Of a DNA stretch of 64,000 nucleotides, positions 22,542 to 37,173 are shown in pieces. Each line of letters begins with the position of its first letter. The stretch's first letter is position 1. The position numbers and the translations under genes are program-made. This DNA comes from Bacteroidales bacterium UBA4814 (GTDB lineage: Bacteria > Bacteroidota > Bacteroidia > Bacteroidales > UBA7960), in NCBI GenBank assembly GCA_002402465.1, contig DHFW01000049.1:148541-212540 (forward strand), given 5' to 3'. The notes below the pieces were generated by a model that saw only the letters and a program-made list of their open reading frames with translations, did no database searches and had not been told where the DNA came from.

Positions 22542-22543
22542 AA

Positions 22544-22873
22544 TTAAATTCCTTTCCGGTAATAATTTAGCCCATCCACAATGTCAGAAAGGATGGCCAA
22601 CTGTGTGCTTGGGTTTATGCTTATATCCAGGTAAATATCGCGCTGGCCGGTATTTATGCCATAGGGAATGGTTGGAAACACCATCACCTTAGCTCCCTTA
22701 TTCCAGGCGATTCTGGCGGCTTCTGCCGAAATAAAGTCCGACTCAATGTTATCGGTTGAATAGGGGAGGTGATAATTATGCGCCTCGGTGGCTCCCCATG
22801 GCAAAATTGCCAGTTCAATTTTCTCCTCTTTCAGGGCATCCCAGTTTTTCTCGGCCAGAATATATGGTCTCAT
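22544..22873 (-). pseudogene. Creatininase-family (creatinine amidohydrolase-like) gene truncated after about 109 aa
   Basis: ILPWGATEAHNYHLPYSTD...FPTIPYGINTG...ISINPSTQLAILSDIVDGL matches the N-terminal 40 percent of the family. It ends just before the expected NGHGGN block, and its stop codon is 2 nt from the XRE ATG. Confidence 0.65.
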
Positions 22874-22893
22874 AAAGTTCTGCTGTTTAATTG

Positions 22894-22901
22894 CAAAACT
22901 A
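22894..22901 (-). promoter_or_regulatory. -7 box TAGTTTTG driving the creatininase remnant and XRE transcript
   Basis: Perfect TAnnTTTG on the minus strand, 20 nt upstream of the ATG at 22873. Confidence 0.45.
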
Positions 22902-22935
22902 CCACTATTCAGGCAGATTTTTTATTTAGCGCGAC

Positions 22936-23172
22936 TCAAACCTTCAGCGCCCCATAGCCCCCATCCACGTGAAGCACCTCGGGAAGAAAGCTGCTAAGAT
23001 CGATTTGCAGATCAAGGATGTCCGCTTTAAGATGTTTTGCGCCTTCGGGCAAATCCGGAGCCTCGCTGCGCGAAACGATAAATAATTGAGGGCCTTCCTT
23101 TGAGAGGGTTTCGGACAGAACAGCGCCAATGCCTGAGGTGCCGCCAATAATGAGGTAGTTCCTGGGTTTCAT
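22936..23172 (-). pseudogene. Short-chain dehydrogenase/reductase remnant with a large internal in-frame deletion
   Basis: MKPRNYLIIGGTSGIGAVLSETLSKEG...FIVSR (Rossmann TGxxxGxG start) is joined after about 65 aa directly to VLHVDGGYGALKV, the typical SDR C-terminus. That leaves 78 aa instead of about 240, with the catalytic YxxxK region missing. Confidence 0.6.
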
Positions 23173-23239
23173 TTTGGTTTTTTTAATCAACAACTTTCAA
23201 ATAATTTGTTCCTGAAAAAGCTCGATAATCTGTAAAATA

Positions 23240-23295
23240 TGTAAGACTTATCCAACAAGGTGTAACATATTTTCTTTTTCGGGGTATTAATTTTA
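23240..23295 (+). promoter_or_regulatory. Stress-type promoter S1: TGTAAG-N15-TGTAAC-N21-TAATTTTA
   Basis: Hexamers at 23240-23245 and 23261-23266, with the -7-like box at 23288-23295. The geometry matches S2, S3, S5 and S6. An extra TGTAAA lies at 23231. Confidence 0.55.
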
Positions 23296-23356
23296 CTATG
23301 TGGAAGTTACTTCACAACTGAGCTCGCCAGCTGCGGGCACCAAAACCCATACAAAC

Positions 23357-23692
23357 ATGAAAAAGTTGGTATTCTACATGGCAACAGCCATGCTGTTGAT
23401 TTTTCTGATTCCAACCCAGGTAAAAGCAGGTCCGGTAGATGATCCGGTTACTGCAGTTGCTATTGAAACGGTTGATACTGATGCAGCCCTTGCGGCAGAA
23501 TCAGAAGCATTACTTGCCCGGCTCGAAGAAATAAACGAGATGGACAAAACAGACCTGACCAGGGCTGAAAAGAGAGACCTTCGCAAGGAAGTCCGCCAGA
23601 TTGACAAAACCCTGACCTTAAGTGGCGGAGGTGTTTATCTTTCGGTTGGCGCCATAATTGTTGTAATCCTGCTACTCATCCTTTTGCTGTAA
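23357..23692 (+). CDS. Small secreted/anchored protein (signal peptide, acidic coiled region, C-terminal TM)
   Basis: MKKLVFYMATAMLLIFLIPTQVKA signal and C-terminal GGGVYLSVGAIIVVILLLILLL. First gene downstream of S1. Confidence 0.55.
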   Translation: MKKLVFYMATAMLLIFLIPTQVKAGPVDDPVTAVAIETVDTDAALAAESEALLARLEEINEMDKTDLTRAEKRDLRKEVRQIDKTLTLSGGGVYLSVGAIIVVILLLILLL

Positions 23693-23698
23693 TACATT

Positions 23699-23908
23699 AT
23701 GAAAAAGATCGGCTTGATTGTTTTGGTCATCGGCCTTGTAATCACTCTTTTCACAGGGTTTAAATACATTACCCGCGAAAAGGTGGTCGACATTGGCGAG
23801 ATTCAGATCTCACGCGATAAAACGAACAGGGTTTCCTGGTCGCCACTTATAGGTGTGGCAGTAATGGTTGTTGGCGGTGGCATTCTTTTGTTCGGCCCCA
23901 AAAAGTAA
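23699..23908 (+). CDS. Two-TM small membrane protein (69 aa)
   Basis: Two hydrophobic helices flank a short charged loop. Tightly spaced, 6 nt after the previous gene. Confidence 0.55.
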   Translation: MKKIGLIVLVIGLVITLFTGFKYITREKVVDIGEIQISRDKTNRVSWSPLIGVAVMVVGGGILLFGPKK

Positions 23909-23984
23909 ACCCTGAAAAAGGATTTACAAACATTTTGATACCTCTCTGAGAGGTATTTAACATTAATTTTTAAAAACAAGCATC

Positions 23985-24140
23985 ATGGGAAATTTACTCT
24001 ACATCATCGCAGTGATATTGATCATTGCCTGGGCCGTCGGATTTGTTGGCTTTCAGGCTGGTGGCATTATTCACCTTCTGCTTGTAATTGCTATAATAGC
24101 AATAATTGTTAAGGTAATCCAGGGCAGAAAGATTTTATAA
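23985..24140 (+). CDS. lmo0937-family small membrane protein (51 aa), copy 1
   Basis: Not in the ORF track (under 60 aa). Own translation: MGNLLYIIAVILIIAWAVGFVGFQAGGIIHLLLVIAIIAIIVKVIQGRKIL, the typical lmo0937-family pattern. Confidence 0.7.
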   Translation: MGNLLYIIAVILIIAWAVGFVGFQAGGIIHLLLVIAIIAIIVKVIQGRKIL

Positions 24141-24176
24141 GAAATCAAGAATTATTAACCTTTAAAACTAAATAAA

Positions 24177-24425
24177 ATGAGTGCAGGAAAAGTATTGTTA
24201 GGTGTATTGGCCGGCGTTTCAGCCGGGGCTTTGTTGGGAATTTTATTTGCTCCTGACAAGGGCAAAGTTACCAGGGAAAAAATTTCTCATAAGGGTGAGG
24301 AATATGCCGGATCTATGAAGAAAAAGTTCAAAGAGACGCGCGATAATATTGCCGAGAAATATGACAAGGTAAAAGAAGAGGTAACTGACTATGCCGAAAA
24401 GCATAAAACCAGAGCTAACTTATAA
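24177..24425 (+). CDS. YtxH-domain general-stress-type protein
   Basis: MSAGKVLLGVLAGVSAGALLGILFAPDKGKVTREKI... followed by a Lys/Glu-rich helix. Confidence 0.8.
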   Translation: MSAGKVLLGVLAGVSAGALLGILFAPDKGKVTREKISHKGEEYAGSMKKKFKETRDNIAEKYDKVKEEVTDYAEKHKTRANL

Positions 24426-24448
24426 ACAGTCTTATAAGAATTAATGGC

Positions 24449-24790
24449 ATGGAAGAAAGTGCAAAACTGATAGAGTCGCTTTACGAAAAAGTAGTGGATT
24501 ATGGTGTTACCAGTTTTGAATTGATAAAGTTTAAAGCCCTGGATAAGACATCAGATGTTGCCTCCTCTTTTTTGCCCCATGCTATTGTTCTTTTGGTATT
24601 TGCAACATTTTTACTGTTGCTGAATTTTGGACTGGCTTTGTGGATTGGCGAAATGCTTGGAAAATTATTTCTTGGGTTTTTTATAGTGGCCGGCTTTTAT
24701 GGTTTAGTTGCATTGGTATTGCACTTTTTTTTGCATAAGCAGTTGAAAAAGCATTTCCAGGACTACATCGTTAAATTGATGTTTAAATAA
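24449..24790 (+). CDS. Holin-X (phage_holin_3_6)-like membrane protein, stress-cluster type
   Basis: An amphipathic N-helix plus two TM helices. This is the usual partner of YtxH genes in Bacteroidota. Confidence 0.6.
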   Translation: MEESAKLIESLYEKVVDYGVTSFELIKFKALDKTSDVASSFLPHAIVLLVFATFLLLLNFGLALWIGEMLGKLFLGFFIVAGFYGLVALVLHFFLHKQLKKHFQDYIVKLMFK

Positions 24791-24797
24791 GATTATT

Positions 24798-25196
24798 ATG
24801 GGAAACATAACCTCTGCTGCCGACATAAAAAATGCCATTCGTTTTTTGGAAACCGATCAGGAAGTAAAGGGGCAAGTTTTAAGGGCACAGTTTAACAATA
24901 CTCTTGAAAGCTTTAAGCCCGTAAATATGCTAAAAAGCGCTGTTCGGGAAATATCGTCTTCGCCATTTCTGCTGACAAATATTGCAGGAGCTGCTGTGGG
25001 TTTAGCCACCGGTTATTTCTCGAAAAGAGTGGTTTTTGGCGCTTCAAAAAATATTCTGAAAAGGAGTTTGGGCATTGCCTTGCAATTTGGGATAACAAAC
25101 TTAATAGCCAGGCATCCTGATGATATAATGTCCTTTGGCCAGGGTTTAATTGAACGTCTTTTTTACCAAAAAAAGGCAGCCGCTGAAAAGATCTGA
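24798..25196 (+). CDS. Hypothetical protein (132 aa), last gene of the S1 cluster
   Basis: ORF with good coding appearance and one central hydrophobic segment. Followed by a terminator. Confidence 0.55.
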   Translation: MGNITSAADIKNAIRFLETDQEVKGQVLRAQFNNTLESFKPVNMLKSAVREISSSPFLLTNIAGAAVGLATGYFSKRVVFGASKNILKRSLGIALQFGITNLIARHPDDIMSFGQGLIERLFYQKKAAAEKI

Positions 25197-25236
25197 CAAG
25201 GGCAGAACATACTGTCCTTGATTGTTCTGTGAAAAT

Positions 25237-25282
25237 AACCGGATGGCGCAGCTAAAAACTAAGCTGGCTTTCCGGTTTTTTT
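25237..25282 (+). terminator. Intrinsic terminator of the S1 small-protein cluster
   Basis: AACCGGA...CAGC-loop-GCTG...TCCGGTT composite hairpin followed by T7. Confidence 0.65.
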
Positions 25283-25375
25283 CAATACAGATAATATGCT
25301 GCCGGGATTAGCGGCCAGGCAGCAGTTAACAAACCACGGCATGAAAAAACCGATTTGGATAAATCTTGATATGTT

Positions 25376-26224
25376 ATGGTGAAGATCATTGGTCCGGTAT
25401 TACGAAAGATACCAAAGAATAGGGATGTAAAGAAGCAAGCCGAAAAGCTGGGCGAGAGAACATTTGAGCAAACCCGAATAGCAAATGTTTTCTTTTCAGA
25501 TATCGCTGATTTCTTTTTGTTTTTGTGGCGCACCACCCGCGAAGCTTTTTCGCGCGATTTTGAGTTTAAGGAATTCTTTCGACAGTGCTACCTTATCGGG
25601 TATAAAACCCTGCCGCTTATTTCGATAACTGGCCTGATCATTGGGTTGGTGCTGACCATACAATTGCGACCTGCCCTGGCCGATTTTGGCGCCGTTTCCA
25701 TGCTTCCCGGCATGGTGGCCTTGTCCATTATCAGGGAAATGGGCCCGGTTATTACCGCCCTCATTTGCGCAGGTAAGATTGGATCGGGTATGGGTGCCGA
25801 ACTGGGCTCAATGAGGGTTACCGAACAGATTGATGCCATGGAGGTATCATCGACCAACCCAATACGGTTTCTGGTTGTTACCAGGGTGTTGGCAGCCACT
25901 TTAATGATACCCATTTTGGTTTTGTATGCCGACGCCCTGGGCATCTTGGGAAGCTGGGCCGGCGCAAATATTAAAGGCGATGTAACTTTTGTATTGTTCT
26001 TCTCCCAGGCTTTCAGCGTCATCGATTTTCTTGATTTGTTTCCCGCGGTTATTAAAACCTTCTTTTTTGGCGCTGCCATTGGGTTTGTGGGTTGCTATAA
26101 AGGATATACTGCAGGACGTGGTACCGAAAGCGTGGGCAAAGCCGCCAATTCGGCTGTGGTTCTTTCTTCGCTGCTCGTAATTATTATCGACCTGGTTGCG
26201 GTGCAAATTACCGATATGCTCTAA
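25376..26224 (+). CDS. mlaE: MlaE-family ABC transporter permease
   Basis: MlaE/Ttg2B-type permease pattern: REMGPVITALICAGKIGSGMGAELGSMRVTEQIDAME. Confidence 0.85.
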   Translation: MVKIIGPVLRKIPKNRDVKKQAEKLGERTFEQTRIANVFFSDIADFFLFLWRTTREAFSRDFEFKEFFRQCYLIGYKTLPLISITGLIIGLVLTIQLRPALADFGAVSMLPGMVALSIIREMGPVITALICAGKIGSGMGAELGSMRVTEQIDAMEVSSTNPIRFLVVTRVLAATLMIPILVLYADALGILGSWAGANIKGDVTFVLFFSQAFSVIDFLDLFPAVIKTFFFGAAIGFVGCYKGYTAGRGTESVGKAANSAVVLSSLLVIIIDLVAVQITDML

Positions 26225-26234
26225 AACAGATAAA

Positions 26235-27014
26235 ATGAAGGAGATGGCTGAATCTGTACCCCTTGTTAAAGAATTTATTAAAACACCCAAAGAGGTGGTT
26301 GAAATAGAAAACCTAAGCATTGGTTTTGAAAACCTTAAGGTATTGGATGATTTTTCGCTCAAGCTATACAATGGCGAAAACCTGGTGGTGCTCGGAAAAT
26401 CAGGCTCGGGGAAATCCGTCTTGATAAAATGCATTGTGCGCTTGCTAATGCCCGACTCAGGAACCGTAAAAGTGCTTGGCGAAGATGTAAATGAAATGGG
26501 CAGGAAGGAGTTGGCCGAGGTGCGCAAAAAAATTGGTTTTCTTTTTCAGAGCGGTGCCCTGTATGATTCAATGACCATTAAAGAGAACCTTGAATTTCCC
26601 TTGAAAAGAGTCAGAAAGGATCTTTCCAGAAAAGAAATGAATGAAAAAGTGGAAGAAGCCCTTGAAAATGTGGGACTGGCAGACACTTTAGATAAAATGC
26701 CTTCACAGCTTTCGGGCGGAATGCGAAAGCGGGTTAGTTTAGCACGTACCGTTGTGGTTGATCCCTTGATCATGCTTTACGACGAACCAACCACAGGGCT
26801 CGACCCCCTTACCTCAGATGAAATCAGTGAGCTCATTAATAAAGTGCAAAAAAAATACAAAACCTCATCACTAATTATTACCCACGATATTGAATGCGCC
26901 CGCGCTACTGCCGACCGAATAATTATGTTGCAAAACGGTGCGGTTTATCTTGAAGGGAAACTTGTTGATTTTGAAAAGTCGGCGGATGTTTTTATCAAGT
27001 CTTTTTTCAGATAA
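26235..27014 (+). CDS. mlaF: MlaF-like ABC transporter ATP-binding protein
   Basis: Walker A GKSGSGKS, signature LSGGMRKRVSLAR and Walker B IMLYDEPTTGLD. The ATG at 26235 is preferred. Confidence 0.9.
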   Translation: MKEMAESVPLVKEFIKTPKEVVEIENLSIGFENLKVLDDFSLKLYNGENLVVLGKSGSGKSVLIKCIVRLLMPDSGTVKVLGEDVNEMGRKELAEVRKKIGFLFQSGALYDSMTIKENLEFPLKRVRKDLSRKEMNEKVEEALENVGLADTLDKMPSQLSGGMRKRVSLARTVVVDPLIMLYDEPTTGLDPLTSDEISELINKVQKKYKTSSLIITHDIECARATADRIIMLQNGAVYLEGKLVDFEKSADVFIKSFFR

Positions 27015-27050
27015 TGATTTAACCAGGAAATAATTTAACACAATATAATC

Positions 27051-28022
27051 ATGGATGCTAAAACTCAAAATTTTAAAGTCAAGCTTGGGATTTTTATTTT
27101 TATTGGCTTGATAATTTTTGTTATTGCCATTTTTTTCATAGGCAAGCAAAAGAACCTGTTTAGCCCGGTGTTTAAAGTAACAACCAGTTTTTATAACATT
27201 AGCGGCTTGCAGGTGGGAAACAATGTCAGGTTCTCTGGCATAAACGTGGGCATTGTTGATAACATTATGATTATAAATGACTCAACGGTGCAAGTCGACG
27301 TGCTAATAAGGAAAAACGTACAGGAATTCATTAAAGCGGATAGCCAGGCCAGTATAGGATCATCAGGCATTATTGGCGACCGTATTTTAACTATTACCCA
27401 GGGCAGCTTTGAATCACCCATAATCAGGGACGGACAAAACATTGAATCGAAAGAACCGGTTGAAACAGACGCCATTATGGCGAGTTTGAGTGCAACTGCC
27501 GGAAATGTTGAAATAATTACCCTGGAACTTGCTGAGATTATGGTAAATATAAATAGCGGACAAGGCGCCCTGGGCAGGTTAATTTCAGATTCAACCATCG
27601 CAGAAAATATCAGTCAGACCATTGGAAATTTCAAGAAAAGTTCGGCCGGGCTTGATGAAACCATTGAAACGACCAAAACAAACGTGTATGCATTCATGGA
27701 GAGCTTGCAGCAAACCGCATCAAAAACAGAAATTGCCTCGCATCAACTGGGTGAAATCATGGTGCGGATTAACAGCGGAGAGGGAACCATTGGCACTTTA
27801 ATACAGGATACTACAATGGCCGGCAACCTGAATCAGACAATGCTGAACCTGAAGAGAAGCTCCCAAGGGCTCGATGAAAATATGGAAGCCCTCAAGCATA
27901 ATTTCCTTTTCAGGGGGTATTTCAGAAGAAAAGCCAAGGAGGATGAAAAAGCCAGGCTTGACTCCTTATCGAGGGAAGCAACACGGATTACTACACCTTT
28001 TATCGACCCAACTAATCAATAA
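27051..28022 (+). CDS. mlaD: MlaD/MCE-domain protein with an extended helical C-terminus
   Basis: N-terminal TM, an MCE block (ISGLQVGNNVRFSGINVGIVDNI) and repeated GALGRLISDST / GTIGTLIQDTT segments. Confidence 0.85.
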   Translation: MDAKTQNFKVKLGIFIFIGLIIFVIAIFFIGKQKNLFSPVFKVTTSFYNISGLQVGNNVRFSGINVGIVDNIMIINDSTVQVDVLIRKNVQEFIKADSQASIGSSGIIGDRILTITQGSFESPIIRDGQNIESKEPVETDAIMASLSATAGNVEIITLELAEIMVNINSGQGALGRLISDSTIAENISQTIGNFKKSSAGLDETIETTKTNVYAFMESLQQTASKTEIASHQLGEIMVRINSGEGTIGTLIQDTTMAGNLNQTMLNLKRSSQGLDENMEALKHNFLFRGYFRRKAKEDEKARLDSLSREATRITTPFIDPTNQ

Positions 28023-28059
28023 AACAAGTCAGGTTTTTCATACAGCAATGTGTGAATTA

Positions 28060-28115
28060 TGTAATAAATTCTTGAATTTTCGTAACATTTTAAGCACGCC
28101 GGTGCTTTAACTTTG
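28060..28115 (+). promoter_or_regulatory. Stress-type promoter S2: TGTAAT-N15-CGTAAC-N21-TAACTTTG
   Basis: Hexamers at 28060 and 28081, with a perfect -7 box at 28108-28115, 44 nt before the ATG at 28160. Confidence 0.6.
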
Positions 28116-28159
28116 AAAAAACTATTTTCTCAAAACCCTAAACCTAAACCCAAATTATC

Positions 28160-28345
28160 ATGTCGCTACTTACCGTTTTAGTTGTACTTATTGTTGCAGG
28201 CCTCCTTTTATGGCTGGTTAACAATTACATACCTATGGATCGTAAAATAAAAACGATTCTGAATGTGGTTGTGGTTATCGTTGTAATCATTTGGCTGTTA
28301 AAGGCATTCGGCCTCTTCGATTCGCTCAGCAACATTCAATTGTAA
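28160..28345 (+). CDS. Thivi_2564-family small membrane protein
   Basis: MSLLTVLVVLIVAGLLLWLVNNYIPMDRKIKTILNVVVVIVVIIWLLKAFGLF is the typical two-helix family pattern. Confidence 0.7.
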   Translation: MSLLTVLVVLIVAGLLLWLVNNYIPMDRKIKTILNVVVVIVVIIWLLKAFGLFDSLSNIQL

Positions 28346-28378
28346 GCGTTTCTGCTTTGTCCTATCAAATTCAATCGT

Positions 28379-28564
28379 ATGGAACCACTAACCACAATAA
28401 CCTGGGATGAGAGAAAAGAAAAGCTCAAGCAACAGTTCCCAGATATTACCGAAGAAGATTTGCACTATAATGATGGCAAGGAAGCGGTAATGATTGAGCG
28501 CCTGGCTCATAAACTGGGAAAGACAAGTGCCGAACTTCGCTACATAATTCATGCGGTAACCTGA
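28379..28564 (+). CDS. CsbD-like general stress protein
   Basis: W-x3-K-x-KLKQQF...EEDL-Y-x-GKE...L-x-KLGKT-x-EL pattern, as in Bacteroidota CsbD-family proteins. Confidence 0.65.
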   Translation: MEPLTTITWDERKEKLKQQFPDITEEDLHYNDGKEAVMIERLAHKLGKTSAELRYIIHAVT

Positions 28565-28587
28565 GTAAAAACCAGACCCGTGATTTT

Positions 28588-28643
28588 TGTAATTCTTTAA
28601 AGAAAAGGTGTAACGCTTTCAGCTTCAAAAAGCATAACCTTTG
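28588..28643 (+). promoter_or_regulatory. Stress-type promoter S3: TGTAAT-N15-TGTAAC-N21-AACCTTTG
   Basis: Hexamers at 28588 and 28609, with the -7-like box at 28636-28643. It shares TGTAATTCTTT with S6 and AAGGTGTAAC with S1. Confidence 0.6.
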
Positions 28644-28680
28644 TATTGTGAAACCGATTTCACCCACAAAAATTTACCCT

Positions 28681-28917
28681 ATGGAAACGTTTGGAAAAAA
28701 TGAAAAACAGAAAATCAAGCCTGATGATGTAAAACAAGAGTTTTTGGGATCTGCCGCTTTTGAGCCCTTGGTTTACAAGGCAGCGGCCGAAGTGCGGTAT
28801 GTGGAAATGCTTGCTTTGCTTGATAAGGCGAAAACAGAAATTTCAAAGATTATTACCGGACATCGCGTTGATTTTTTAATTAAAAAAATTAATCAGGTTG
28901 AAAACAACCAGAACTAA
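28681..28917 (+). CDS. Hypothetical small protein (78 aa)
   Basis: ORF downstream of S3. The ATG at 28681 is preferred because the track start at 28648 would lie at or upstream of the predicted transcription start. Confidence 0.45.
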   Translation: METFGKNEKQKIKPDDVKQEFLGSAAFEPLVYKAAAEVRYVEMLALLDKAKTEISKIITGHRVDFLIKKINQVENNQN

Positions 28918-28989
28918 TTTCCTTACCCGAACATTGTTTCTGTTCAGGTTGGCAGCTATGATGGCCTTTTCAATGAATTCAAGAACCAA

Positions 28990-29790
28990 ATGAAAAAAAC
29001 ATTTTTTTTGCTTGTCATCACCTTGCTGCTGGCAGGCTGTGCCCTAAACCAGGTTACTGGCCGAAAACAGCTGAACTTAGTCAGCGAATCAGAGATGCAA
29101 ATGATGGCGGTTGACCAATACGGGGCCTTTTTGAGCGAACACAAGGTGTTAAGCCCGGGCAACAACCAAAATGCTGCCATGGTAACCAGGGTTGGATCGC
29201 GCATTGCCAAGGCCGTTACAGCCTATTATACCAGTCAGGGTATGGGGTCTATACTCGAAGGGTATAGCTGGCAATTCAGCACCATAGACGAAAAAGATGT
29301 GGTCAATGCCTGGTGTATGCCAGGCGGTAAAGTGGCCGTATATACCGGCATATTGCCGGTAACCCAAAATGAAACAGCGTTGGCTATTGTTATGGGCCAT
29401 GAGATTGCTCATGCCATTGCCAAACATGGCAATGAACGAATGAGCCAGGCTATGGTGCAGCAATTGGGAGGTGTGGCCCTGCAGGTTGCATTGGCCCAGC
29501 AACCCCAGCAAACCCAGGATCTGTTTTTAATGTCGTATGGCATTGGAAGCACCGTGGGGGCCATGTTGCCCTGGTCGCGGCAACAGGAAACAGAAGCCGA
29601 TAAATACGGGCTGATATTTGCTGCCATGGCTGGTTATGACCCGCGCGAAGCCATCCCATTCTGGGAAAGGATGTCAGCAGCAGGCGGGGAAAGCCCACCA
29701 GAGTTCCTGAGCACCCACCCTTCTGATAATACCAGAATGAGAAAACTGAGGCAGTTTATGCCCGAAGCACTGACCTATTATAAGCCCTGA
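28990..29790 (+). CDS. M48-family zinc metalloprotease lipoprotein (YcaL/LoiP-like)
   Basis: Lipobox LLAGC, the HEIAHAIAKHGNE zinc motif and the downstream EADKYG. Confidence 0.85.
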   Translation: MKKTFFLLVITLLLAGCALNQVTGRKQLNLVSESEMQMMAVDQYGAFLSEHKVLSPGNNQNAAMVTRVGSRIAKAVTAYYTSQGMGSILEGYSWQFSTIDEKDVVNAWCMPGGKVAVYTGILPVTQNETALAIVMGHEIAHAIAKHGNERMSQAMVQQLGGVALQVALAQQPQQTQDLFLMSYGIGSTVGAMLPWSRQQETEADKYGLIFAAMAGYDPREAIPFWERMSAAGGESPPEFLSTHPSDNTRMRKLRQFMPEALTYYKP

Positions 29791-29889
29791 TTTTTTTTAT
29801 TGAAAAAGGGGGAGGGAGCGCGGTTTTTTTTTGGGTTTTGATTAAACTTGCATCTTGGGAATTTTCCCATTTTATAAAAACCAAAAAGG

Positions 29890-29960
29890 TGTAAGGTGCA
29901 GGGCCACAGATCGGGCAATACAACAAGGTGTAGCGCATTTTCGGTTTTTTCTTAATTTAG
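29890..29960 (+). promoter_or_regulatory. Degenerate stress-type site S4 upstream of the CheB/CheR fusion gene
   Basis: AAGGTGTAAG (29890) and CAACAAGGTGTAGCGCATTTTC (29929). The latter is nearly identical to the S1 proximal site CAACAAGGTGTAACATATTTTC. The hexamer spacing is 39 rather than 21, and the -7-like box TAATTTAG is at 29953. Confidence 0.35.
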
Positions 29961-29970
29961 CGTATAATAA

Positions 29971-32913
29971 ATGGCAAAATTTACTAAAAACCGGCCCGAA
30001 TCAACCCTCATTGCTTCCAAAAAGGTTTCTGAGAGCCTTGCATTGGAGTCAAAAACAAAACTTTTTCCCATTGTTGCAATTGGAGCCTCGGCCGGTGGCC
30101 TGGAAGCCATTGAACAGTTTCTGGCCAATGTGCCCGAAAACAGTGGCATGGCTTATGTGGTAATACAACATTTAGATCCTACACAAAAGGGCATGCTGCC
30201 TGAGTTATTGCAGCGCATTTCTAAAATGAAGGTTTCCCAGGCAAAAGACGGTATGGTGGTTAAGCCAAACTGTGTGTATGTCATTCCCCCCAACAAGAGC
30301 ATGTCGATTTTAAACGGCAACCTTTACTTGTTTGAGCCCATGGAAGCCAGAGGCTTGCGGCTACCCATCGATTTTTTCATGCGCTCCCTTGCCGATGACC
30401 TCCAAGACTTTGGTGTTGGCGTTATTCTTTCGGGCATGGGCTCCGACGGAAGCACAGGGTTAAAGGCTATAAAAGAGAAAAATGGGATCGTATTGGTTCA
30501 GGACCCGGAAACGGCCAAATTTGACAGCATGCCCAGAAATGCCATTAATTCCGTTTTGGTTGACATTGTGGCTCCGGCCAGCAAATTGCCCGAAAAGCTC
30601 CTGGAATTTCAAAAACTTCTTCCGCAGGTAAAAATTTCCACTGAAACCGAAGTGAAGGATAAAAGTGCCCTCGAAAAGATTATCATCCTGCTGCGAACCT
30701 TTACCGGTAATGACTTCTCGTTGTATAAAAAAAGTACGCTCTACCGCCGTATCGAGAGGCGCATGGGGGTCCACAAAATCGACAGAATCTCTTCATACGT
30801 CACCTTGCTGCAAGAAAACCCAAAGGAAATAGACATTCTTTTCAGGGAACTGCTCATTGGGGTCACCAATTTCTTTCGCGACAAAAAAGTTTGGGAAAAG
30901 TTTGAAAGAATTGTTTTTCCCGAAATTTTGCTGAGGCAAAATGCCGGTGCAACGCTCAGGGCATGGGTGGCCGGTTGTTCTACTGGAGAAGAAGCTTACT
31001 CTCTGGCCATTATCTTTAAGGAAGTACTGGAGAACATTAAGCCCAGCCGCAACATTTCCCTGCAGATATTTGCCACCGACCTCGATCAGGATTCCATTGA
31101 AATTGCAAGAAGGGGCCTGTACCCAGAGAATATTTCTGCTGATGTTTCGCCCGAACGACTGAACCGGTTTTTTGTCAAAACAGATGAGGGTTACCGTATT
31201 AACAGCGAAATAAGGGAGATGGTAGTATTTGCCCAGCATAATATTATCATGCATCCGCCATTTACTAAGATTGATATTCTTTCGTGCCGAAACCTGCTGA
31301 TTTATCTGGACCCCGAATTGCAGATCAAGGTATTAAAGCTTTTCTATTATAGTTTGAAACCCGAGGGGATAATGCTTCTGGGCAGTTCAGAATCACTGGG
31401 TGCCCGCAGCAATCTTTTTAAACCAGTTGACTCTGTGTTGAAAATTTATCAACGATCGGCCGATGCAATGGAGCCTGGTTTGTTCAATTTCCCTTCCTCC
31501 TTTTCGCGCAGCCGAGCCGAGCATATTGAAAAACAAACCGCCGCGATTCCTGCCCCGAATATTCATGACCTGGTCGATCAGCTGCTCTTGCAGCATTATT
31601 CGCCTCCGGGATTGCTGGTAAATGAAGATGGAGATATTATATATATCTCGGGCCGCACAGGTAAATACCTGGAGCCCGTTGCCGGAAAAGCGAACATGAA
31701 TGTGTTTGCCATGTTGCACGAAGGATTGCGAAAGGAATTTCCGGTGGCTTTTAACCAGGCTATTAGAAAAAAGGGAACCGTTGTATTGCGAAACATGTAC
31801 GTGGGCACCAATGGGGGTAAGCAAAAGCTGAACATTACCATACAATGGATTGACAAACCAGAGTCGTTAAAGAATATGGTATTGATAATTTTTTCTGATA
31901 TAACCGAAGCTCGCGACTTAAAAATGAAAACAAGGAGTAGTAGGGAATCGCTGAACAGTTCAAGGGAAGCAGCGCTTGAGAAAGAGCTGCAGAGCACCCT
32001 TGAAAAGATGCAAAGTACGATGGAAGAAATGCAGGCCTCACAGGAGGAGCTCAAATCGGCCAACGAAGAACTGCAATCGGCCAATGAGGAGTTGCAATCA
32101 ACCAACGAGGAGCTTACCAGCTCAAAAGAGGAGATGCAAAGCCTCAATGAAGAGCTTCAAACCGTTAATGCAGAGCTGCAGGCCAAGGTAGATGACTATT
32201 CGCACCTTGATAACGACATGAAAAACCTGCTCAACAGCACCGATATTGCTACTTTGTTTCTCGACAAAGAGTTGAACATCCGCCGTTATACCAACCAGGC
32301 AACCAAGATCTTTAAATTGATAAAAAGTGATATCGGGCGTCCCATCACCGACCAGGTCTCTAATATTAATTACCCTGAAATGGCTAAGGATGCCCTGGAG
32401 GTTTTAAACTCCCTGGTATTTATCGAAAAACAGATCTCCGGAAAGGATGGGCAATGGTTTAACGTTCGGATAATGCCCTACCGGACTTTCGAAGATCGCA
32501 TAGATGGCCTGGTCATCACCTTTATCAATATTTCAGAACTTAAGAGGATGGAGAAAGAATGCAACGAAACAAAAAAGAAAGAACGTTTGTTATTAAATAG
32601 TTCTGATGATCCTGTTTTTATTTTATCAGACGAATTGAACATTATGGAACTGAACCCCGTGGCCGAGAAATTCCTTGGTATCAAACGTGAGGATGCATTA
32701 AGCCAAAACTGGATAAATTTTTGTGTCGCCGAGCCGGAAAGAAAAAAGGCAGAAGATCAATTGCAGAAAATGCTGACAGGAATGGAGGGAGGAACTATGC
32801 AGATTCTGTTACAAAAAAACGGAGATAAAAAGGCCTTGGTTGAGTGTGAGGTAAAATTAGCAGGCAACAACCGGAAAAACACTGATGGAATATTGATTTT
32901 CATAAGAAAATAA
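29971..32913 (+). CDS. CheB methylesterase - CheR methyltransferase - coiled coil - PAS/PAC fusion protein (no kinase output)
   Basis: CheB block PIVAIGASAGGLEAIEQF...VVIQHLDP, CheR block FFRDKKVWEKF...WVAGCSTGEEAYSLAI, the heptad run ELQSANEELQSTNEEL and C-terminal PAS folds. No HisKA or HATPase motifs. Confidence 0.88.
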   Translation: MAKFTKNRPESTLIASKKVSESLALESKTKLFPIVAIGASAGGLEAIEQFLANVPENSGMAYVVIQHLDPTQKGMLPELLQRISKMKVSQAKDGMVVKPNCVYVIPPNKSMSILNGNLYLFEPMEARGLRLPIDFFMRSLADDLQDFGVGVILSGMGSDGSTGLKAIKEKNGIVLVQDPETAKFDSMPRNAINSVLVDIVAPASKLPEKLLEFQKLLPQVKISTETEVKDKSALEKIIILLRTFTGNDFSLYKKSTLYRRIERRMGVHKIDRISSYVTLLQENPKEIDILFRELLIGVTNFFRDKKVWEKFERIVFPEILLRQNAGATLRAWVAGCSTGEEAYSLAIIFKEVLENIKPSRNISLQIFATDLDQDSIEIARRGLYPENISADVSPERLNRFFVKTDEGYRINSEIREMVVFAQHNIIMHPPFTKIDILSCRNLLIYLDPELQIKVLKLFYYSLKPEGIMLLGSSESLGARSNLFKPVDSVLKIYQRSADAMEPGLFNFPSSFSRSRAEHIEKQTAAIPAPNIHDLVDQLLLQHYSPPGLLVNEDGDIIYISGRTGKYLEPVAGKANMNVFAMLHEGLRKEFPVAFNQAIRKKGTVVLRNMYVGTNGGKQKLNITIQWIDKPESLKNMVLIIFSDITEARDLKMKTRSSRESLNSSREAALEKELQSTLEKMQSTMEEMQASQEELKSANEELQSANEELQSTNEELTSSKEEMQSLNEELQTVNAELQAKVDDYSHLDNDMKNLLNSTDIATLFLDKELNIRRYTNQATKIFKLIKSDIGRPITDQVSNINYPEMAKDALEVLNSLVFIEKQISGKDGQWFNVRIMPYRTFEDRIDGLVITFINISELKRMEKECNETKKKERLLLNSSDDPVFILSDELNIMELNPVAEKFLGIKREDALSQNWINFCVAEPERKKAEDQLQKMLTGMEGGTMQILLQKNGDKKALVECEVKLAGNNRKNTDGILIFIRK

Positions 32914-32978
32914 AAACCATAAGTTTTCTGCTAATCACTTTAATAGAATAACAATAATGAACCCTAAATAACATAGCC

Positions 32979-33536
32979 ATGGTAATTGAAGATAATGATT
33001 ATACGAACCCCCGTACTCTGCGCAAGAAAGCAGAAGAAATTCTTCGCCTGAAAAAAGAAAAAAAGTCAAAGGAAAACCTGGAGATTGATGCAAAGAAAAT
33101 ACTGCATGAATTACAGGTGCACCAGATTGAGCTCGAAATGCAGAATGAAGAGTTGCTTGCGGCCATTGAAACCGCAGAAGCGGCCCTTAAAAAATATACG
33201 CTTTTGTTTGACCTTGCACCAGTGGGATTTTTCACCCTTGAGTCAGACGGTACCATTAGCGACCTGAATTTTACTGCTGCTGAAATACTCAATGAAAAAA
33301 GATTCAGCTTGCTGGGAAGCAACTTTAAACTTTTTGTTTCCGATGACTCCAAGCCGATTTTTAACCAATTCTTTGGCAAAGTTTTTAGAAGTAAAGCAAA
33401 GCAATCCTGCGAAGTGAAACTTGGTTATGACAGTAAAACCCTTTGCCTGGTTCATATGGAAGGCATCGTAACCGGCGTAGAACCAAAATGCCAGTTGTCG
33501 GTTGTAGATATTACAAGCTTCAAACACACGCCATAA
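32979..33536 (+). CDS. Stand-alone coiled-coil plus single PAS domain protein
   Basis: LHELQVHQIELEMQNEELLAA leader, typical of multi-PAS sensor proteins, followed by a PAS fold (LFDLAPVGFFTLESDGTISDLNFTAAEIL). It ends without an output domain. Confidence 0.7.
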   Translation: MVIEDNDYTNPRTLRKKAEEILRLKKEKKSKENLEIDAKKILHELQVHQIELEMQNEELLAAIETAEAALKKYTLLFDLAPVGFFTLESDGTISDLNFTAAEILNEKRFSLLGSNFKLFVSDDSKPIFNQFFGKVFRSKAKQSCEVKLGYDSKTLCLVHMEGIVTGVEPKCQLSVVDITSFKHTP

Positions 33537-33620
33537 ATAAAGGGGCTGCCTTTAAGATGTTTTATCACCCTTAAGACAGCCCCTGAAATTAATCCTGGGT
33601 ATTCTACTTATTTTTATCTG

Positions 33621-34319
33621 TTAAAACCGGTATCCAAGAGATACACCGTAACCAGTGTTTCTATACTCCCTTTTGTTATCACCGGGGAACCTGTTATCTT
33701 CAGGATTAATTTTCAGCAATCCCAATTGGGTATTTAGTTGAAAGAATAAGCCGCCGGCCAGCTCGTATCCGGCAAAAATGTTTGCGCCTGCATCGAGGGC
33801 TTTAAAATAACTGCCTAAAATATCATCAGTGGCATCTACCACATTTACAAATTCAATATCATTCTCGTAATTAACAGAGCCGGATTCAAATTTATCCTTG
33901 CCTTTAAAAGCGTAACCAACGTAGGGGCCAAAACCCACCATCACGTATCCATTTCCCAGCAAGCCTTTATAAACCAGGTTCAGGGGAACTTCAATATACG
34001 ACAGGTTTATTGTTCTTGTTGTTTCTAATATTCCTGTAATAGGGTCACTTACGTTTTTTGCGCCCTTGGTTGAAAACAGCACGCCAGGCTGGAGATAAAA
34101 ATCTGACGCAATGGGTATCTGAATATTCAATCCGGCATGATAACCAATGATCATATCATTTTCAAGTTTATCTCCGGAGAAATTCTTGCCATTAATGTTC
34201 TGTAAGTTTACGCCTCCGAGAATACCGAATGCGGTTTTTTGTGCTCCGGGTCTTTGCGCAATGGCCATAGAAGCGGTTAGCATAAGAATCATTGCAATTG
34301 AAAAAATTTTGTTTTTCAT
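33621..34319 (-). CDS. Outer-membrane beta-barrel protein, copy 2
   Basis: Signal peptide ...MAIAQ and C-terminal GVSLGYRF. Alignable by eye along its full length with 12751..13419 (roughly 45 percent identity). Confidence 0.8.
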   Translation of the reverse strand: MKNKIFSIAMILMLTASMAIAQRPGAQKTAFGILGGVNLQNINGKNFSGDKLENDMIIGYHAGLNIQIPIASDFYLQPGVLFSTKGAKNVSDPITGILETTRTINLSYIEVPLNLVYKGLLGNGYVMVGFGPYVGYAFKGKDKFESGSVNYENDIEFVNVVDATDDILGSYFKALDAGANIFAGYELAGGLFFQLNTQLGLLKINPEDNRFPGDNKREYRNTGYGVSLGYRF

Positions 34320-34374
34320 TTAATTGTTTTGTTTAAGTGAATAAATAACTGGTTTTTTGTTTAAGGAATTAATT

Positions 34375-35058
34375 TTACTGATTTGCAGCTGCAGCAGCTT
34401 CTGCTTCAGCGCGCATTTTGTCATTGGCCGTAATTACGAACTCAACCCTGCGATTTTGTGCACGACCATCTTCGGTGTCGTTCACATATTTCGGTAAAGT
34501 TTCGCCGTATCCAACAACTGTTAAACGGCCAACGGAAACGTTTTTCGTAATCAGGTAATCTGAAACGGCAGTAGCACGCCTTTCAGACAAACCCTGGTTG
34601 TAAGTTAAACTACCCTTGCTGTCGGTATGCCCCTGAATTTCAATGTCAGTATCAGGATAGCCTTCCAGCACCTTTACCAGTTTATCAAGGCTGGTTTTTG
34701 CATCATTCGACAGGCCCGACTGGTCGAATCCAAACAATACGGCACTGCTGAATTCTACTATGATACCTTCGCCTACACGAAGCACCTTGGCATCGGGAAC
34801 GGTTTTTGCAATTTCTTCAGCCTGTTTGTCCATTTGGTTGCCAATTACGGCACCAGCGGTACCTCCAACAGCAGCACCTATGATTGCACCCATGGCGGTA
34901 TTGCCAGAAGCCTTGCCAATTACAGCACCCATGGCACCGCCGGTAGCGGTTCCCACTGCAGCTCCTTTTTGTGTTTTATTCATCGACGAGCAACTTGCAA
35001 ATATTACAGTTGCCATCAGCATCATTATCATTGTTAAGCTCAATCTAAACTTTTTCAT
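34375..35058 (-). CDS. OmpA-family lipoprotein with a glycine-zipper N-domain, copy 2
   Basis: Lipobox FASC, a Gly zipper and QGHTDSKGSLTYNQGLSERRATAV...NRRVEF. Roughly 60 percent identical by eye to 13450..14124. Confidence 0.9.
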   Translation of the reverse strand: MKKFRLSLTMIMMLMATVIFASCSSMNKTQKGAAVGTATGGAMGAVIGKASGNTAMGAIIGAAVGGTAGAVIGNQMDKQAEEIAKTVPDAKVLRVGEGIIVEFSSAVLFGFDQSGLSNDAKTSLDKLVKVLEGYPDTDIEIQGHTDSKGSLTYNQGLSERRATAVSDYLITKNVSVGRLTVVGYGETLPKYVNDTEDGRAQNRRVEFVITANDKMRAEAEAAAAANQ

Positions 35059-35082
35059 AATTTAAGGGATTTATCATTTGTA

Positions 35083-35138
35083 CAAAGGTAGCTTCCTAAT
35101 GCCTGGTTAATGTTACACAACTTACCCTAAGAGTTACA
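35083..35138 (-). promoter_or_regulatory. Stress-type promoter S5: TGTAAC-N15-TGTAAC-N21-TACCTTTG (minus strand)
   Basis: The reverse complement reads TGTAAC (35138-35133), TGTAAC (35117-35112) and a perfect -7 box (35090-35083), 24 nt before the OmpA copy 2 ATG. Confidence 0.65.
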
Positions 35139-35361
35139 TTATTCACGCCTTTTAAATATTTTACTTGATTTTTGCGTTTGGCTGTCATCTGGGGTTTTAA
35201 AAACCATATGCAGTAGCGTTAAATATTGACAGAATGGATTTTTCTTTGTACCTTTCTAAAGATTTTCCCCTTGTGAAACTGGCATGAGGAGACCGTTCAT
35301 TCATAGGAGAATAATCTATATGTGAGTTCCATCTACAAATGAAAAAACAAATGCTGAAAAG

Positions 35362-35922
35362 ATGAAACTCTTTATTAAGTATATGGTCAGCCTTCGGTGC
35401 AAGATGGTGGTCATGGAGGAGCTTGAAAAACTTGGGATCAAATTTTTCTCGGTTGACCTTGGCGTGGTTGAGACCCAGGAAGACATTTCGCAGGAGCAGC
35501 ATGATGCCCTTAAGGTAAATCTGAAAAAATCGGGACTGGAGTTGCTGGATGACCATAAAAGCATCCTGATTGAGCAAATCAAAAATGTGGTCATTGAAAT
35601 GATCCACTTTTCCGACGAACTACCCAAGGTTAACTATTCTGATTACATCAGCGAAAAGGTGGGGTATAAATACACCTACCTTTCCAATCTTTTTTCGGAG
35701 GTGAAGGGTATTACACTTCAACAGTTTATTATTATGCACCGTATTGAGAAGGTAAAGGAACTGTTGCTTTACGATGAGCTGAATCTTACCGAGATTTCAT
35801 ATAGATTGCAATACAGCAGCGTTGCCCACCTTTCAAACCAATTCCGGAAAATTACCGGACTTACCCCCTCCTTCTATAAACAGCTAAAGAAAAAGCGCAG
35901 GAAAAACCTCGAGAACCTGTGA
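35362..35922 (+). CDS. AraC/XylS-family transcriptional regulator (small N-domain plus HTH_18)
   Basis: C-terminal dual HTH: YLSNLFSEVKGITLQQFIIMHRIEKVKELLLYDELNLTEISYRLQYSSVAHLSNQFRKITGLTPSFY. Confidence 0.85.
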   Translation: MKLFIKYMVSLRCKMVVMEELEKLGIKFFSVDLGVVETQEDISQEQHDALKVNLKKSGLELLDDHKSILIEQIKNVVIEMIHFSDELPKVNYSDYISEKVGYKYTYLSNLFSEVKGITLQQFIIMHRIEKVKELLLYDELNLTEISYRLQYSSVAHLSNQFRKITGLTPSFYKQLKKKRRKNLENL

Positions 35923-35926
35923 AATC

Positions 35927-35982
35927 TGTAATTCTTTTTCACTAAAGTGTAATGCTTTTTCAGGCTTTGCTGCCCACCTTTG
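35927..35982 (+). promoter_or_regulatory. Stress-type promoter S6: TGTAAT-N15-TGTAAT-N21-CACCTTTG
   Basis: Hexamers at 35927 and 35948, with the -7-like box at 35975-35982, 23 nt before the ATG at 36006. It starts 5 nt after the AraC stop codon. Confidence 0.6.
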
Positions 35983-36005
35983 GTATAATCAAAACTGGGC
36001 TAACC

Positions 36006-36173
36006 ATGAGAACTGCATTGTATATAATTACAGCCATCCTGCTAATAGTTTGGGCTGTTGGAACACTTGGATACGATGCCGGCGGCACATTCCATTTAGT
36101 GCTTGTTTTGGCACTTATTACATTATTAATTCCCTATGTTGCCGGACGAAAGTTGATTAAGAAAAACCCGTAG
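36006..36173 (+). CDS. lmo0937-family small membrane protein, copy 2
   Basis: MRTALYIITAILLIVWAVGTLGYDAGGTFHLVLVLALITLLIPYVAGRKL. The internal ATG is preferred over the track start at 35952. Confidence 0.7.
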   Translation: MRTALYIITAILLIVWAVGTLGYDAGGTFHLVLVLALITLLIPYVAGRKLIKKNP

Positions 36174-36211
36174 TACAAAGTTCAGTAATTACCTTACCAA
36201 AATAAATTGCC

Positions 36212-36367
36212 ATGTCACACGAAAGGGAAGGAAAAGAAAAATCGGATAAGAAAGCTCCGCAGAAAAGCCTGAAGGAAAAGCGCGCCGCAAAAGCCGCAAA
36301 AAGGGATGAAAAGGGATCGGTGAATAAAATCATGATCACTCCTCCCGATTCTAAATCTGCCAAATAG
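36212..36367 (+). CDS. Possible small Lys-rich protein (51 aa)
   Basis: Own translation: MSHEREGKEKSDKKAPQKSLKEKRAAKAAKRDEKGSVNKIMITPPDSKSAK. Preferred over the antisense track ORF 36157..36363, which has an odd composition. Weak support only. Confidence 0.3.
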   Translation: MSHEREGKEKSDKKAPQKSLKEKRAAKAAKRDEKGSVNKIMITPPDSKSAK

Positions 36368-36396
36368 AAGGCCAGATCAAACCAAACATAAGACCA

Positions 36397-36618
36397 TTGA
36401 ATTTAACCACCTCCCGGAAAATCCGGAAGCAAAACAAAAAACCATTTTGCGAATTCGCAACAAATAATGTTGGGATAGATTTCATCCTTGGACTGGAAAA
36501 TAACTTCAAAGAAATACCTTTCAATATAAGCATAGACTGGAAACCTGCCTATAATCTAACTGGCTATAGTGGGTTCTGGGCTGATGGCGGGGCAATATCC
36601 ATTCGCTATATTTTTTAA
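36397..36618 (+). pseudogene. C-terminal fragment of an outer-membrane beta-barrel gene
   Basis: It ends in alternating beta-strand sequence and a terminal aromatic (GIDFILGLENNFKEIPFNISIDWKPAYNLTGYSGFWADGGAISIRYIF). There is no signal peptide or N-terminal barrel. Confidence 0.4.
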
Positions 36619-36637
36619 TCAGGTTTTAATATAAACG

Positions 36638-36676
36638 ATACCTCCCAATAATACCTCCCAATAATACCTCCCGCAA
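36638..36676. repeat. 13-nt tandem repeat ATACCTCCCAATA x2 plus a diverged third copy
   Basis: Units at 36638-36650, 36651-36663 and 36664-36676 (ATACCTCCCGCAA). The minus strand reads GGGAGGTAT three times. Confidence 0.8.
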
Positions 36677-37165: not shown

Positions 37166-37173
37166 TACATTTG
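37166..37173 (+). promoter_or_regulatory. -7 box TACATTTG
   Basis: Perfect TAnnTTTG 22 nt before the ATG at 37196. Confidence 0.4.

Follow-up and report, generated by a model that had tools for sequence, protein, structure and literature searches.

Classical class II activators of the AraC family, exemplified by AraC at I1-I2, XylS at Pm and RhaS, bind two sites in direct orientation that lie 21 bp apart, centre to centre, with the proximal site ending at the -35 element and each site divided into two sub-elements about one helical turn apart. Members of the family with tandem direct repeats ending at -35 are mostly activators. In Bacteroides, the operators predicted for AraC-type hybrid two-component systems are likewise direct repeats, with 16+5, 12+9 and 14+6 bp arrangements and a period of 20-21 bp (PMC3878776). 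Here we describe a comparable layout in a 64-kb stretch of contig DHFW01000049.1 from Bacteroidales bacterium UBA4814, referred to below as the window, where five intergenic sites (S1, S2, S3, S5 and S6) carry two TGTAAY-type hexamers in front of a -7-like box, and a gene between S5 and S6 encodes a 186-aa AraC-family protein. Judging from gene linkage and site geometry, the five sites are probably operators of one transcription factor, most likely this 186-aa protein, acting as a tandem-bound class II-type activator.

The resemblance to AraC, XylS and RhaS extends to several specific features. The direct half-sites are about 21 bp apart, centre to centre, exactly so in all five sites of the window; the proximal half-site occupies the -35-equivalent position at a fixed distance from the core, with the start predicted; the two sub-elements are represented by TGTGA-N4-TGTAAY; and Pfam matches, a structural model, Foldseek and gene linkage point to a cognate regulator with two helix-turn-helix (HTH) motifs in its AraC domain. 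Unlike in those systems, the core promoter is of the Bacteroidota sigma-A kind (-7 box TAnnTTTG) with its -33 element replaced, and the 186-aa regulator has a ferredoxin-like N-domain in place of a cupin or sugar-binding domain. The genes served are also stress genes rather than a catabolic operon, and the operator overlaps the regulator's own stop codon. The Bacteroides hybrid systems belong to the same phylum, use the same type of DNA-binding domain and have direct repeats with a period of 20-21 bp, but their regulators are large membrane-bound sensors that include a kinase and a receiver domain and serve polysaccharide utilisation loci through different, genus-specific motifs (PMC3878776), whereas the regulator described here is a small cytoplasmic protein conserved across phyla. 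A sequence-only reading of the window had proposed the class II AraC/XylS layout from the 21-bp direct repeats and the proximal copy at -33, and that proposal is now supported by a phylum-wide phasing peak, the linked AraC gene and the Bacteroides precedent.

Each site opens with an A-rich run followed by a third element that begins 9 nt 5' of the distal hexamer, leaving a 4-nt gap, in the form AAA-n-n-TGTGA (TGTGA in S2 and S6, CGTGA in S3 and S5, TGTAA in S1). The two hexamers are separated by exactly 15 nt, and 21 nt lead from the proximal hexamer to the box. S1 (23226-23295, plus strand; 44.2 bits against the matrix described below) has its A-rich run, TGTAA at 23231-23235, distal TGTAAG at 23240-23245, proximal TGTAAC at 23261-23266 and the box TAATTTTA at 23288-23295. 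In S2 (28046-28115, plus; 48.8 bits), TGTGA at 28051-28055 precedes distal TGTAAT at 28060-28065, proximal CGTAAC at 28081-28086 and TAACTTTG at 28108-28115. S3 (28574-28643, plus; 56.4 bits) comprises CGTGA at 28579-28583, distal TGTAAT at 28588-28593, proximal TGTAAC at 28609-28614 and AACCTTTG at 28636-28643. The single minus-strand site, S5 (35083-35152; 49.9 bits), runs from CGTGA at 35147-35143 through distal TGTAAC at 35138-35133 and proximal TGTAAC at 35117-35112 to TACCTTTG at 35090-35083. Finally, S6 (35913-35982, plus; 49.7 bits) has TGTGA at 35918-35922, distal TGTAAT at 35927-35932, proximal TGTAAT at 35948-35953 and CACCTTTG at 35975-35982. The sequence-only reading had placed all five sites and both spacings correctly, and the shared flanks it listed are real (TGTAATTCTTT in S3 and S6, AAGGTGTAAC in S1 and S3); it captured the hexamer pair and the -7 box and left the upstream TGTGA element and the adjacent regulator gene unremarked.

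When both strands of the window were scanned, TGTAAY-N15-YGTAAY gave four exact matches, compared with a mean of 0.01 in 100 dinucleotide-preserving shuffles, and S1 matched with one mismatch (TGTAAG). A 71-nt position matrix built from 52 input sites scored the five sites at 44.2-56.4 bits and the runner-up position on either strand at -2.9, a clean bimodality. A relaxed window scan (up to one mismatch per hexamer, N14-16) returned no further full-architecture site in which a -7-like box was correctly spaced. Nor did any candidate sixth site pass before MlaE (25197-25375) or before the CheB/CheR gene (29791-29970), where a degenerate half-site at 29929 is all that was found. The sequence 5' of the CheB/CheR gene (29886-29942) reads aaggTGTAAG, 33 nt and then aaggTGTAGCgcattttc, which are like proximal half-sites with the wrong spacing and no matrix score. 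Between two minus-strand genes, TTTAAC-N15-TTTAAC (5398-5424) has the same 21-bp phasing with another hexamer; a TTACCTTTG box follows further downstream, though not at the spacing of the five sites.

Conservation was assessed in two additional sets of sequences. The genome set consists of 80 loci (1.37 Mb, one genome per species) obtained via regulator homologues of 65-84% identity and retained out of at least 590 stretches encoding relatives; counts given for 81 loci include the window. The metagenome set consists of 120 contigs with a mean length of ~6 kb, chosen purely by the DNA pattern TGTGA-N4-TGTAAY-N15-TGTAAC. Exact hexamer pairs number 47 in the genome set versus 0-5 in shuffles, and matrix hits above the 8-bit threshold applied to related loci number 178 in the 81 loci versus 1 in shuffles. 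The metagenome contigs contain 221 matrix hits; CTTTG stands at the exact distance in 103 of them. Histograms drawn from unselected hexamers in the 80 genome loci revealed a single sharp peak at hexamer-N15-hexamer (46 versus ~1-3 at other spacings), a second at TGTGA-N4-hexamer (45 versus ~1.5) and a third at hexamer-N24-CTTTG, which equals N21 to the box (34 cases, falling to 10 at N23 and to 5 at N25). The expectation, raised with the original sites, that N15 and N21 would be conserved in relatives and that the motif would exceed its shuffled level holds in these loci. For 379 sites the consensus reads AAA-t-G-TGTGA-A-T-n-A-TGTAAC-(T-rich)-...-A-r-T-T-r-TGTAAC-a-N20-n-A-n-C-T-T-T-G.

Both the regulator and the operator are widespread. 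The best 120 database homologues of the regulator are full length and 75-100% identical, with representatives in Bacteroidales, Cyclobacteriaceae, Perlabentimonas, Fulvivirga, Algoriphagus, Rhodocytophaga, Reichenbachiella and Ekhidna; the closest named homologue among the matches listed belongs to a Bacteroidales metagenome-assembled genome (95% identical). The window itself derives from an uncultured bacterium, and a Logan assembly contains the same contig, at 76 kb. The 80 genome loci span Bacteroidales, Cytophagales, Chitinophagales, Saprospiraceae, Sphingobacteriia and Flavobacteriales (including Chryseobacterium, Aquimarina and Flavobacterium) and also reach Balneolales, a Melioribacteraceae genome (Ignavibacteriota) and a Calditrichota genome. 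Regulator and operator are conserved together in Bacteroidota and, beyond it, in Balneolales, Ignavibacteriota and Calditrichota.

The downstream end of the motif resembles a sigma-A core promoter. The -7 element of Bacteroidota sigma-A is TAnnTTTG (PMC7366714), and in Flavobacterium psychrophilum it sits at -12 to -5 (PMC9723704). In the 379 sites, the box is a variant of TAnnTTTG with the composition n-A(88%)-n-C(61%)-T(96%)-T(97%)-T(74%)-G(60%), and its first position is C (39%) or T (25%). A -33 TTTG some 19-21 nt upstream of the box is not conserved over these sites, and the proximal TGTAAC occupies its place. With the start predicted from a box at -12 to -5, the proximal hexamer would lie at -39 to -34, the distal hexamer at -60 to -55, TGTGA at -69 to -65 and the A-run at about -74 to -72, and the two sites would be centred near -41 and -62 if each protomer covers 15 bp. 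Conservation reaches ~75 nt upstream of the predicted start.

These features bear on a suggestion made alongside the original sites, that GTAAC could be the -35 of an extracytoplasmic function (ECF)-type sigma factor. ECF -35 elements usually contain AAC, and the -10 element is often CGT at 16-17 nt downstream. The hexamer does contain AAC and the genes served are stress genes, but two more conserved elements lie 21 and 30 nt upstream, and downstream, conservation is confined to the sigma-A-type box nAnCTTTG at a distance of 21 nt. No conservation was detected 16-17 nt past the hexamer in the 379 sites. A tblastn search with RpoE as the query found ECF-sigma-like genes in 3 of the 120 motif-selected contigs and 3 of the 81 regulator loci, so that linkage to a sigma/anti-sigma pair is not apparent in either set. 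Given the ~75 nt of conservation, the sigma-A box and the rarity of ECF-like genes, the suggestion finds no support and we consider an alternative sigma factor highly improbable.

The sites also occur where promoters are expected. All five in the window are intergenic and aimed at a gene that begins 20-70 nt past the box. Among 158 sites, an ATG-started open reading frame (ORF) begins 5-120 nt past the box in 126, compared with 40% of random positions, and 20% fall within long open frames versus 80% of random positions; the distance from box to start codon is most often 20-60 nt. The likeness among the sites, and nothing further, could be cited for a coincidental resemblance, a dispersed repeat, the end of a mobile element or a structured RNA. 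Against such explanations stand the shuffle controls, the intergenic, oriented placement 20-60 nt before start codons, and repeats that are direct rather than inverted and upstream of a -7 box; their probability is negligible. An Rfam scan of 22500-37500 at E ≤1 returned two chance eukaryotic matches only. The RNA-element reading was dropped, as no Rfam family was found and folding of the five sites was inconsistent (z-scores -2.4 to +0.7). A non-canonical promoter motif of B. thetaiotaomicron, PM2, is near-palindromic with -10 and -30 boxes and is a different motif (PMC7366714). The F. psychrophilum transcriptome reports the sigma-type motifs SM1-6 only, with no GTAA string (PMC9723704).

The candidate regulator gene (35362-35922, plus strand) encodes a protein that matches Pfam HTH_18 (E = 4e-18) and also HTH_AraC. 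An AlphaFold2 model (mean predicted local distance difference test score 85, predicted template modelling score 0.70) has three parts: residues 1-62 form a beta-alpha-beta-beta-alpha-beta N-domain and residues 65-82 a long linker helix, followed by a standard seven-helix, two-HTH AraC DNA-binding domain. Foldseek matched the DNA-binding domain to AraT, MarA, YesN, AdpA, SoxS and Rob, and returned only weak ACT-like and HMA-like matches for the N-domain. A sequence search of the PDB matched the AraC domain and nothing else, and NCBIfam holds no model specific to the regulator. An invariant R12-C13-K14 motif is located in the loop joining strand 1 and helix 1. The HMA fold carries its CxxC motif at the loop position of Cys13, where the regulator reads SxxC. 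Searched by itself, the N-domain delimits a family with 1296 representative clusters (E ≤0.001); most of the representatives listed are ~190 aa or shorter, the full-length ones being ~186 aa.

The two recognition helices, YTYL[S/A]NxFSE and VAHLSNQFKK, are near-invariant over the 80 loci and resemble each other, and would fit an invariant operator with alike sub-elements, TGTGA and TGTAA. Covariation between helices and operator was sought, for example with the Chryseobacterium operator variants, and the recognition helices were found not to vary. Another described group worth comparing is MarA, SoxS and Rob of Enterobacteria, which are also small AraC-family proteins with a dispersed stress regulon and class I or II positions, and whose DNA-binding domain matches the model. 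A MarA, SoxS or Rob monomer recognises a single asymmetric 20-bp box that may face either way, whereas two phased sites and a third element, always in one orientation, are present here. The NCBIfam equivalog scores of the regulator fall far under the cut-offs (SoxS 28.8 bits against 174, RamA 23.8 against 180, Rob 16 against 426), and the sequence relationship to this group is limited to the family domain.

Genomic proximity is one basis for assigning the operator to this protein. In S6, TGTGA (35918-35922) is made of the TG of the regulator's final Leu codon (CTG) and its stop codon TGA. A same-strand site lies within 200 nt past the regulator stop codon in 60 of the 81 loci, and in 33 of the 81, drawn from several phyla, the distal hexamer begins exactly 4 nt after the stop, as in S6. 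The gene that follows the post-regulator site varies, including CsbD, cupin, a Lys-rich peptide, TM69, DUF5670, an ice-binding-like protein, OmpA and a second AraC paralogue; the 4-nt geometry, with TGTGA drawn from the last Leu codon and the stop, is kept across phyla despite the changing downstream gene. Because no room for a terminator exists between the regulator stop and the operator, regulator transcripts should run into the target gene. The regulator gene itself probably has its own promoter at 35226-35256 on the plus strand (TTG-N20-TACCTTTC, read by eye, with no hexamer pair), and the window scan gave no plus-strand matrix hit upstream of it.

The motif-selected contigs carry a regulator homologue in 20 of 120 cases. 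When every ORF of ≥90 aa on these contigs was clustered without bias, the regulator came out as the second-ranked neighbour family (19 loci) and the sole recurrent DNA-binding family. The top-ranked neighbour was a CheB/CheR-PAS-HisKA-HATPase-REC-HPt hybrid kinase (25 of 120 loci), sometimes 3' of the motif. One might accordingly suppose that another DNA-binding protein reads the motif, for instance a LytTR-type factor or a response regulator receiving its signal from the linked hybrid kinases, with the AraC gene a regulon member or neighbour. Besides the prevalence of these PAS-HisKA-HATPase-REC-HPt kinases, 4 of the motif-selected loci have small receiver-domain proteins, and LytTR regulators likewise use direct repeats ~21 bp apart. 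No second DNA-binding family recurs in the motif-selected loci, however, operator and AraC stop codon are fused in 33 of 81 loci from several phyla, and the near-invariant recognition helices match a near-invariant operator, making a different factor quite unlikely.

Related sensory genes are found within the stress island of the window, namely a 980-aa CheB-CheR-PAS protein without a kinase domain (29971-32913) and a 185-aa PAS protein (32979-33536). In some genomes (L010, 10001-11222; L023, 3969-5230; L064; L079), a second AraC paralogue, ~60-66% identical, has a motif site before it and a PAS hybrid histidine kinase after it; it directly follows the first copy in L010, L023 and L064, and two small genes intervene in L079.

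Several observations weigh against assigning the operator to the AraC-family protein. The genome loci were selected for presence of the regulator, leaving the metagenome set as the only independent linkage test, and 100 of its 120 short contigs lack the regulator gene. The frequent CheB/CheR-PAS hybrid kinase neighbours hint at a pathway component left unaccounted for. The regulator is without a recognisable ligand-binding or receiver domain of known function, and the upstream half of the proximal site is weakly conserved. Moreover, the regulator-adjoining sites of the Chryseobacterium/Epilithonimonas loci (L030-L035, L049 and L053) are degenerate at 11-32 bits (11-23 bits in Chryseobacterium), with a proximal hexamer of TGTAGC, TACAAC or TATAGC and CTTTG displaced by 1 nt, and the recognition helices there are unchanged.

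With the AraC-family protein as the activator, and an inducing signal presumed, two protomers would bind in tandem and in direct-repeat orientation, 21 bp apart. The two HTH motifs of the distal protomer would read TGTGA-N4-TGTAAY, and the proximal protomer would read mainly TGTAAC. The proximal hexamer, at about -39 to -34, would take the usual place of the Bacteroidota -33 element, and the bound factor would recruit RNA polymerase with the primary sigma factor in class II-type activation. As the canonical -33 TTTG is absent, the promoters would depend on the bound factor for polymerase recruitment.

Placement of the proximal hexamer on the -33 position also tells against activation, since a site that overlaps this region could equally occlude RNA polymerase. 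The same protein at the same operator might then be a repressor that blocks polymerase over the -33 region until stress releases it. The apparently ordinary promoter of the regulator gene would agree with this, and so would a palindrome at the predicted start in a subset of promoters, whose half-site TGTGAA resembles the upstream element and would suit repression. Fixed operator-to-box spacing, by contrast, is typical of factors that must touch RNA polymerase. We favour activation because the distance to the -7 box is rigid (the N24 peak of 34 against 10 and 5 on either side), the -33 TTTG is missing and the box commonly starts with C in place of T, both of which weak promoters in need of an activator would show, and because AraC, XylS and RhaS, together with the direct repeats predicted for the Bacteroides hybrid systems, provide family precedent; repression is unlikely on these grounds.

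The palindrome, GTGAA-N6-TTCAC (consensus tGTGAAAATtcATTCACa), was found in 42 of the 379 sites, beginning exactly 60 nt after the distal hexamer and 4 nt after the -7 box, which corresponds to the predicted start; random 60-nt windows contain it at 0.25%. In the window, S3 has a copy at 28648-28663 (plus strand), at its predicted transcription start 4 nt past the box, and S1 has an imperfect version, GTGGA-N6-TTCAC, that begins at the predicted start (23300-23315, plus strand). It mostly precedes CsbD and ice-binding-like genes, and could be a second operator, with a half-site like the upstream TGTGAA, or a 5'-terminal mRNA hairpin.

In the window, the genes served by the five sites are small stress- or envelope-type genes, and domain matches bear out the labels assigned to them from sequence, including DUF5670/lmo0937 (23985 and 36006), YtxH (24177), Thivi_2564 (28160), the M48 peptidase (28990), and OmpA/glycine zipper and outer-membrane barrel on the minus strand. 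The S1 unit (23357-25196, plus strand) contains six genes, for a 111-aa secreted or transmembrane protein, a 69-aa transmembrane protein, DUF5670/lmo0937 (23985-24140), YtxH (24177-24425), a Holin-X-like protein (24449-24790) and a 132-aa protein. The Holin-X-like label stands as a match whose score is slightly under the Pfam threshold. S2 serves 28160-28564 (plus), where 28160-28345 encodes a membrane protein of the Thivi_2564 family and 28379-28564 a CsbD-like protein of 61 aa that clusters with proteins above the Pfam CsbD threshold (one cluster member scores 50 bits, cut-off 40). Downstream of S3 (28681-29790, plus) are genes for a 78-aa protein (28681-28917) and an M48 lipoprotein peptidase (28990-29790), which are probably co-transcribed. 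The S5 unit (33621-35058, minus) encodes a glycine-zipper/OmpA-family protein (34375-35058) and an outer-membrane beta-barrel protein (33621-34319), and S6 precedes a unit at 36006-36367 (plus) with the second DUF5670/lmo0937 copy (36006-36173) and a Lys-rich 51-aa protein (36212-36367). Families of the S1 unit also follow the motif in other genomes, for example in L059 and L025, as do both S5-unit families (clusters K3 and K8).

To survey regulon content more broadly, 736 ORFs located 3' of sites in the pooled genome and metagenome sets were clustered, with Pfam labels assigned to representatives. CsbD-like proteins (cluster K1, 64 ORFs) are the commonest first gene, in 43 cases. They are followed by PAS hybrid histidine kinases (34 ORFs), OmpA/glycine-zipper proteins (33), Cupin_2 proteins of ~116 aa (32), DUF5670/lmo0937 (30), a coiled-coil lipoprotein of ~149 aa (26), ice-binding-like proteins (26), the representative of which also has a type IX secretion sorting domain, outer-membrane barrels (20) and a 69-aa membrane protein (17). 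The regulator or a paralogue accounts for 17 ORFs and is the first gene in 9 cases, and the Lys-rich peptide (cluster K11) and YtxH account for 15 each. Smaller sets include MlaE/F/D, an AI-2E transporter and Usp, along with products that resemble YceI, band-7 and catalase in sequence, the last in one locus. General-stress-type genes such as CsbD, YtxH, DUF5670, Usp, OmpA and MlaEFD are therefore dispersed under one control element in many genomes, and by sequence the genes served appear to form a general-stress-like or envelope-stress-like set.

In other phyla, sigma-B, RpoS or EcfG run gene sets of this kind. The regulons of sigma-B (Bacillus, Listeria), RpoS (E. coli) and EcfG (Alphaproteobacteria) share with this one CsbD/YjbJ, YtxH, lmo0937, universal stress, OmpA-like or envelope, and catalase-like genes, but control here would be exerted by an activator with the primary sigma factor rather than by sigma replacement, and no partner-switching module was seen. 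To our knowledge, the Bacteroidota general stress response is poorly understood and the primary sigma factor of the phylum is unusual; we know of no RpoS or sigma-B in Bacteroidota or the neighbouring phyla of the Fibrobacterota-Chlorobiota-Bacteroidota (FCB) group. Our full-text literature search found no described master regulator for csbD, ytxH or lmo0937-type genes in Bacteroidota. It also found no description of the regulator or operator, most subscription journals lying outside its coverage, which agrees with the earlier statement that no Bacteroidota regulon with such an operator had been described. The kind of mechanism is already known; the regulator, the operator, their cross-phylum spread, the stop-codon fusion and the stress cargo are new as far as we could find, and a prior description is possible.

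Overall, these results suggest an undescribed master switch for a general-stress-like gene set. In its broadest form, the proposal would be that general stress responses in Bacteroidota and the adjoining FCB phyla are governed by one extremely conserved one-component AraC-family activator, which would have an ACT/HMA-like N-domain with one invariant cysteine and would operate together with the primary sigma factor at a three-part operator. The activator gene would be fused to its first operator, which contains the stop codon, in a unit whose cargo gene is freely exchanged, and CheB/CheR-PAS hybrid kinases may feed the pathway. We put this forward tentatively, as a scheme nearly as likely to hold as to fail. 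The operator it supplies, AAA-nn-TGTGA-N4-TGTAAY-N15-TGTAAC-N21-nAnCTTTG, can be tested, and since the candidate regulator occurs in cultivable Chryseobacterium, Algoriphagus, Echinicola, Pontibacter, Dyadobacter and Aquimarina, control of Bacteroidota general stress genes becomes directly testable. It would also permit regulon prediction across thousands of environmental genomes, and would add a stress-inducible promoter part to the sparse genetic toolkit of the phylum.

Several neighbouring genes of the window deserve mention. An MlaE-MlaF-MlaD transporter (25376-28022) lies between the S1 and S2 units without a site of its own, separated from the S1 unit by a hairpin and T-run; on other metagenome contigs, the motif has MlaE as its first downstream gene in 8 cases. 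A gene for a stress-type small membrane protein of the Pmp3 family (36818-36973, minus strand) adjoins the island and has no motif site. Directly upstream of S1 on the minus strand (22293-23172), three successive ORFs in different frames resemble pieces of one short-chain dehydrogenase (N-terminal GGTSGIG), and may represent a frameshifted pseudogene or an assembly error.

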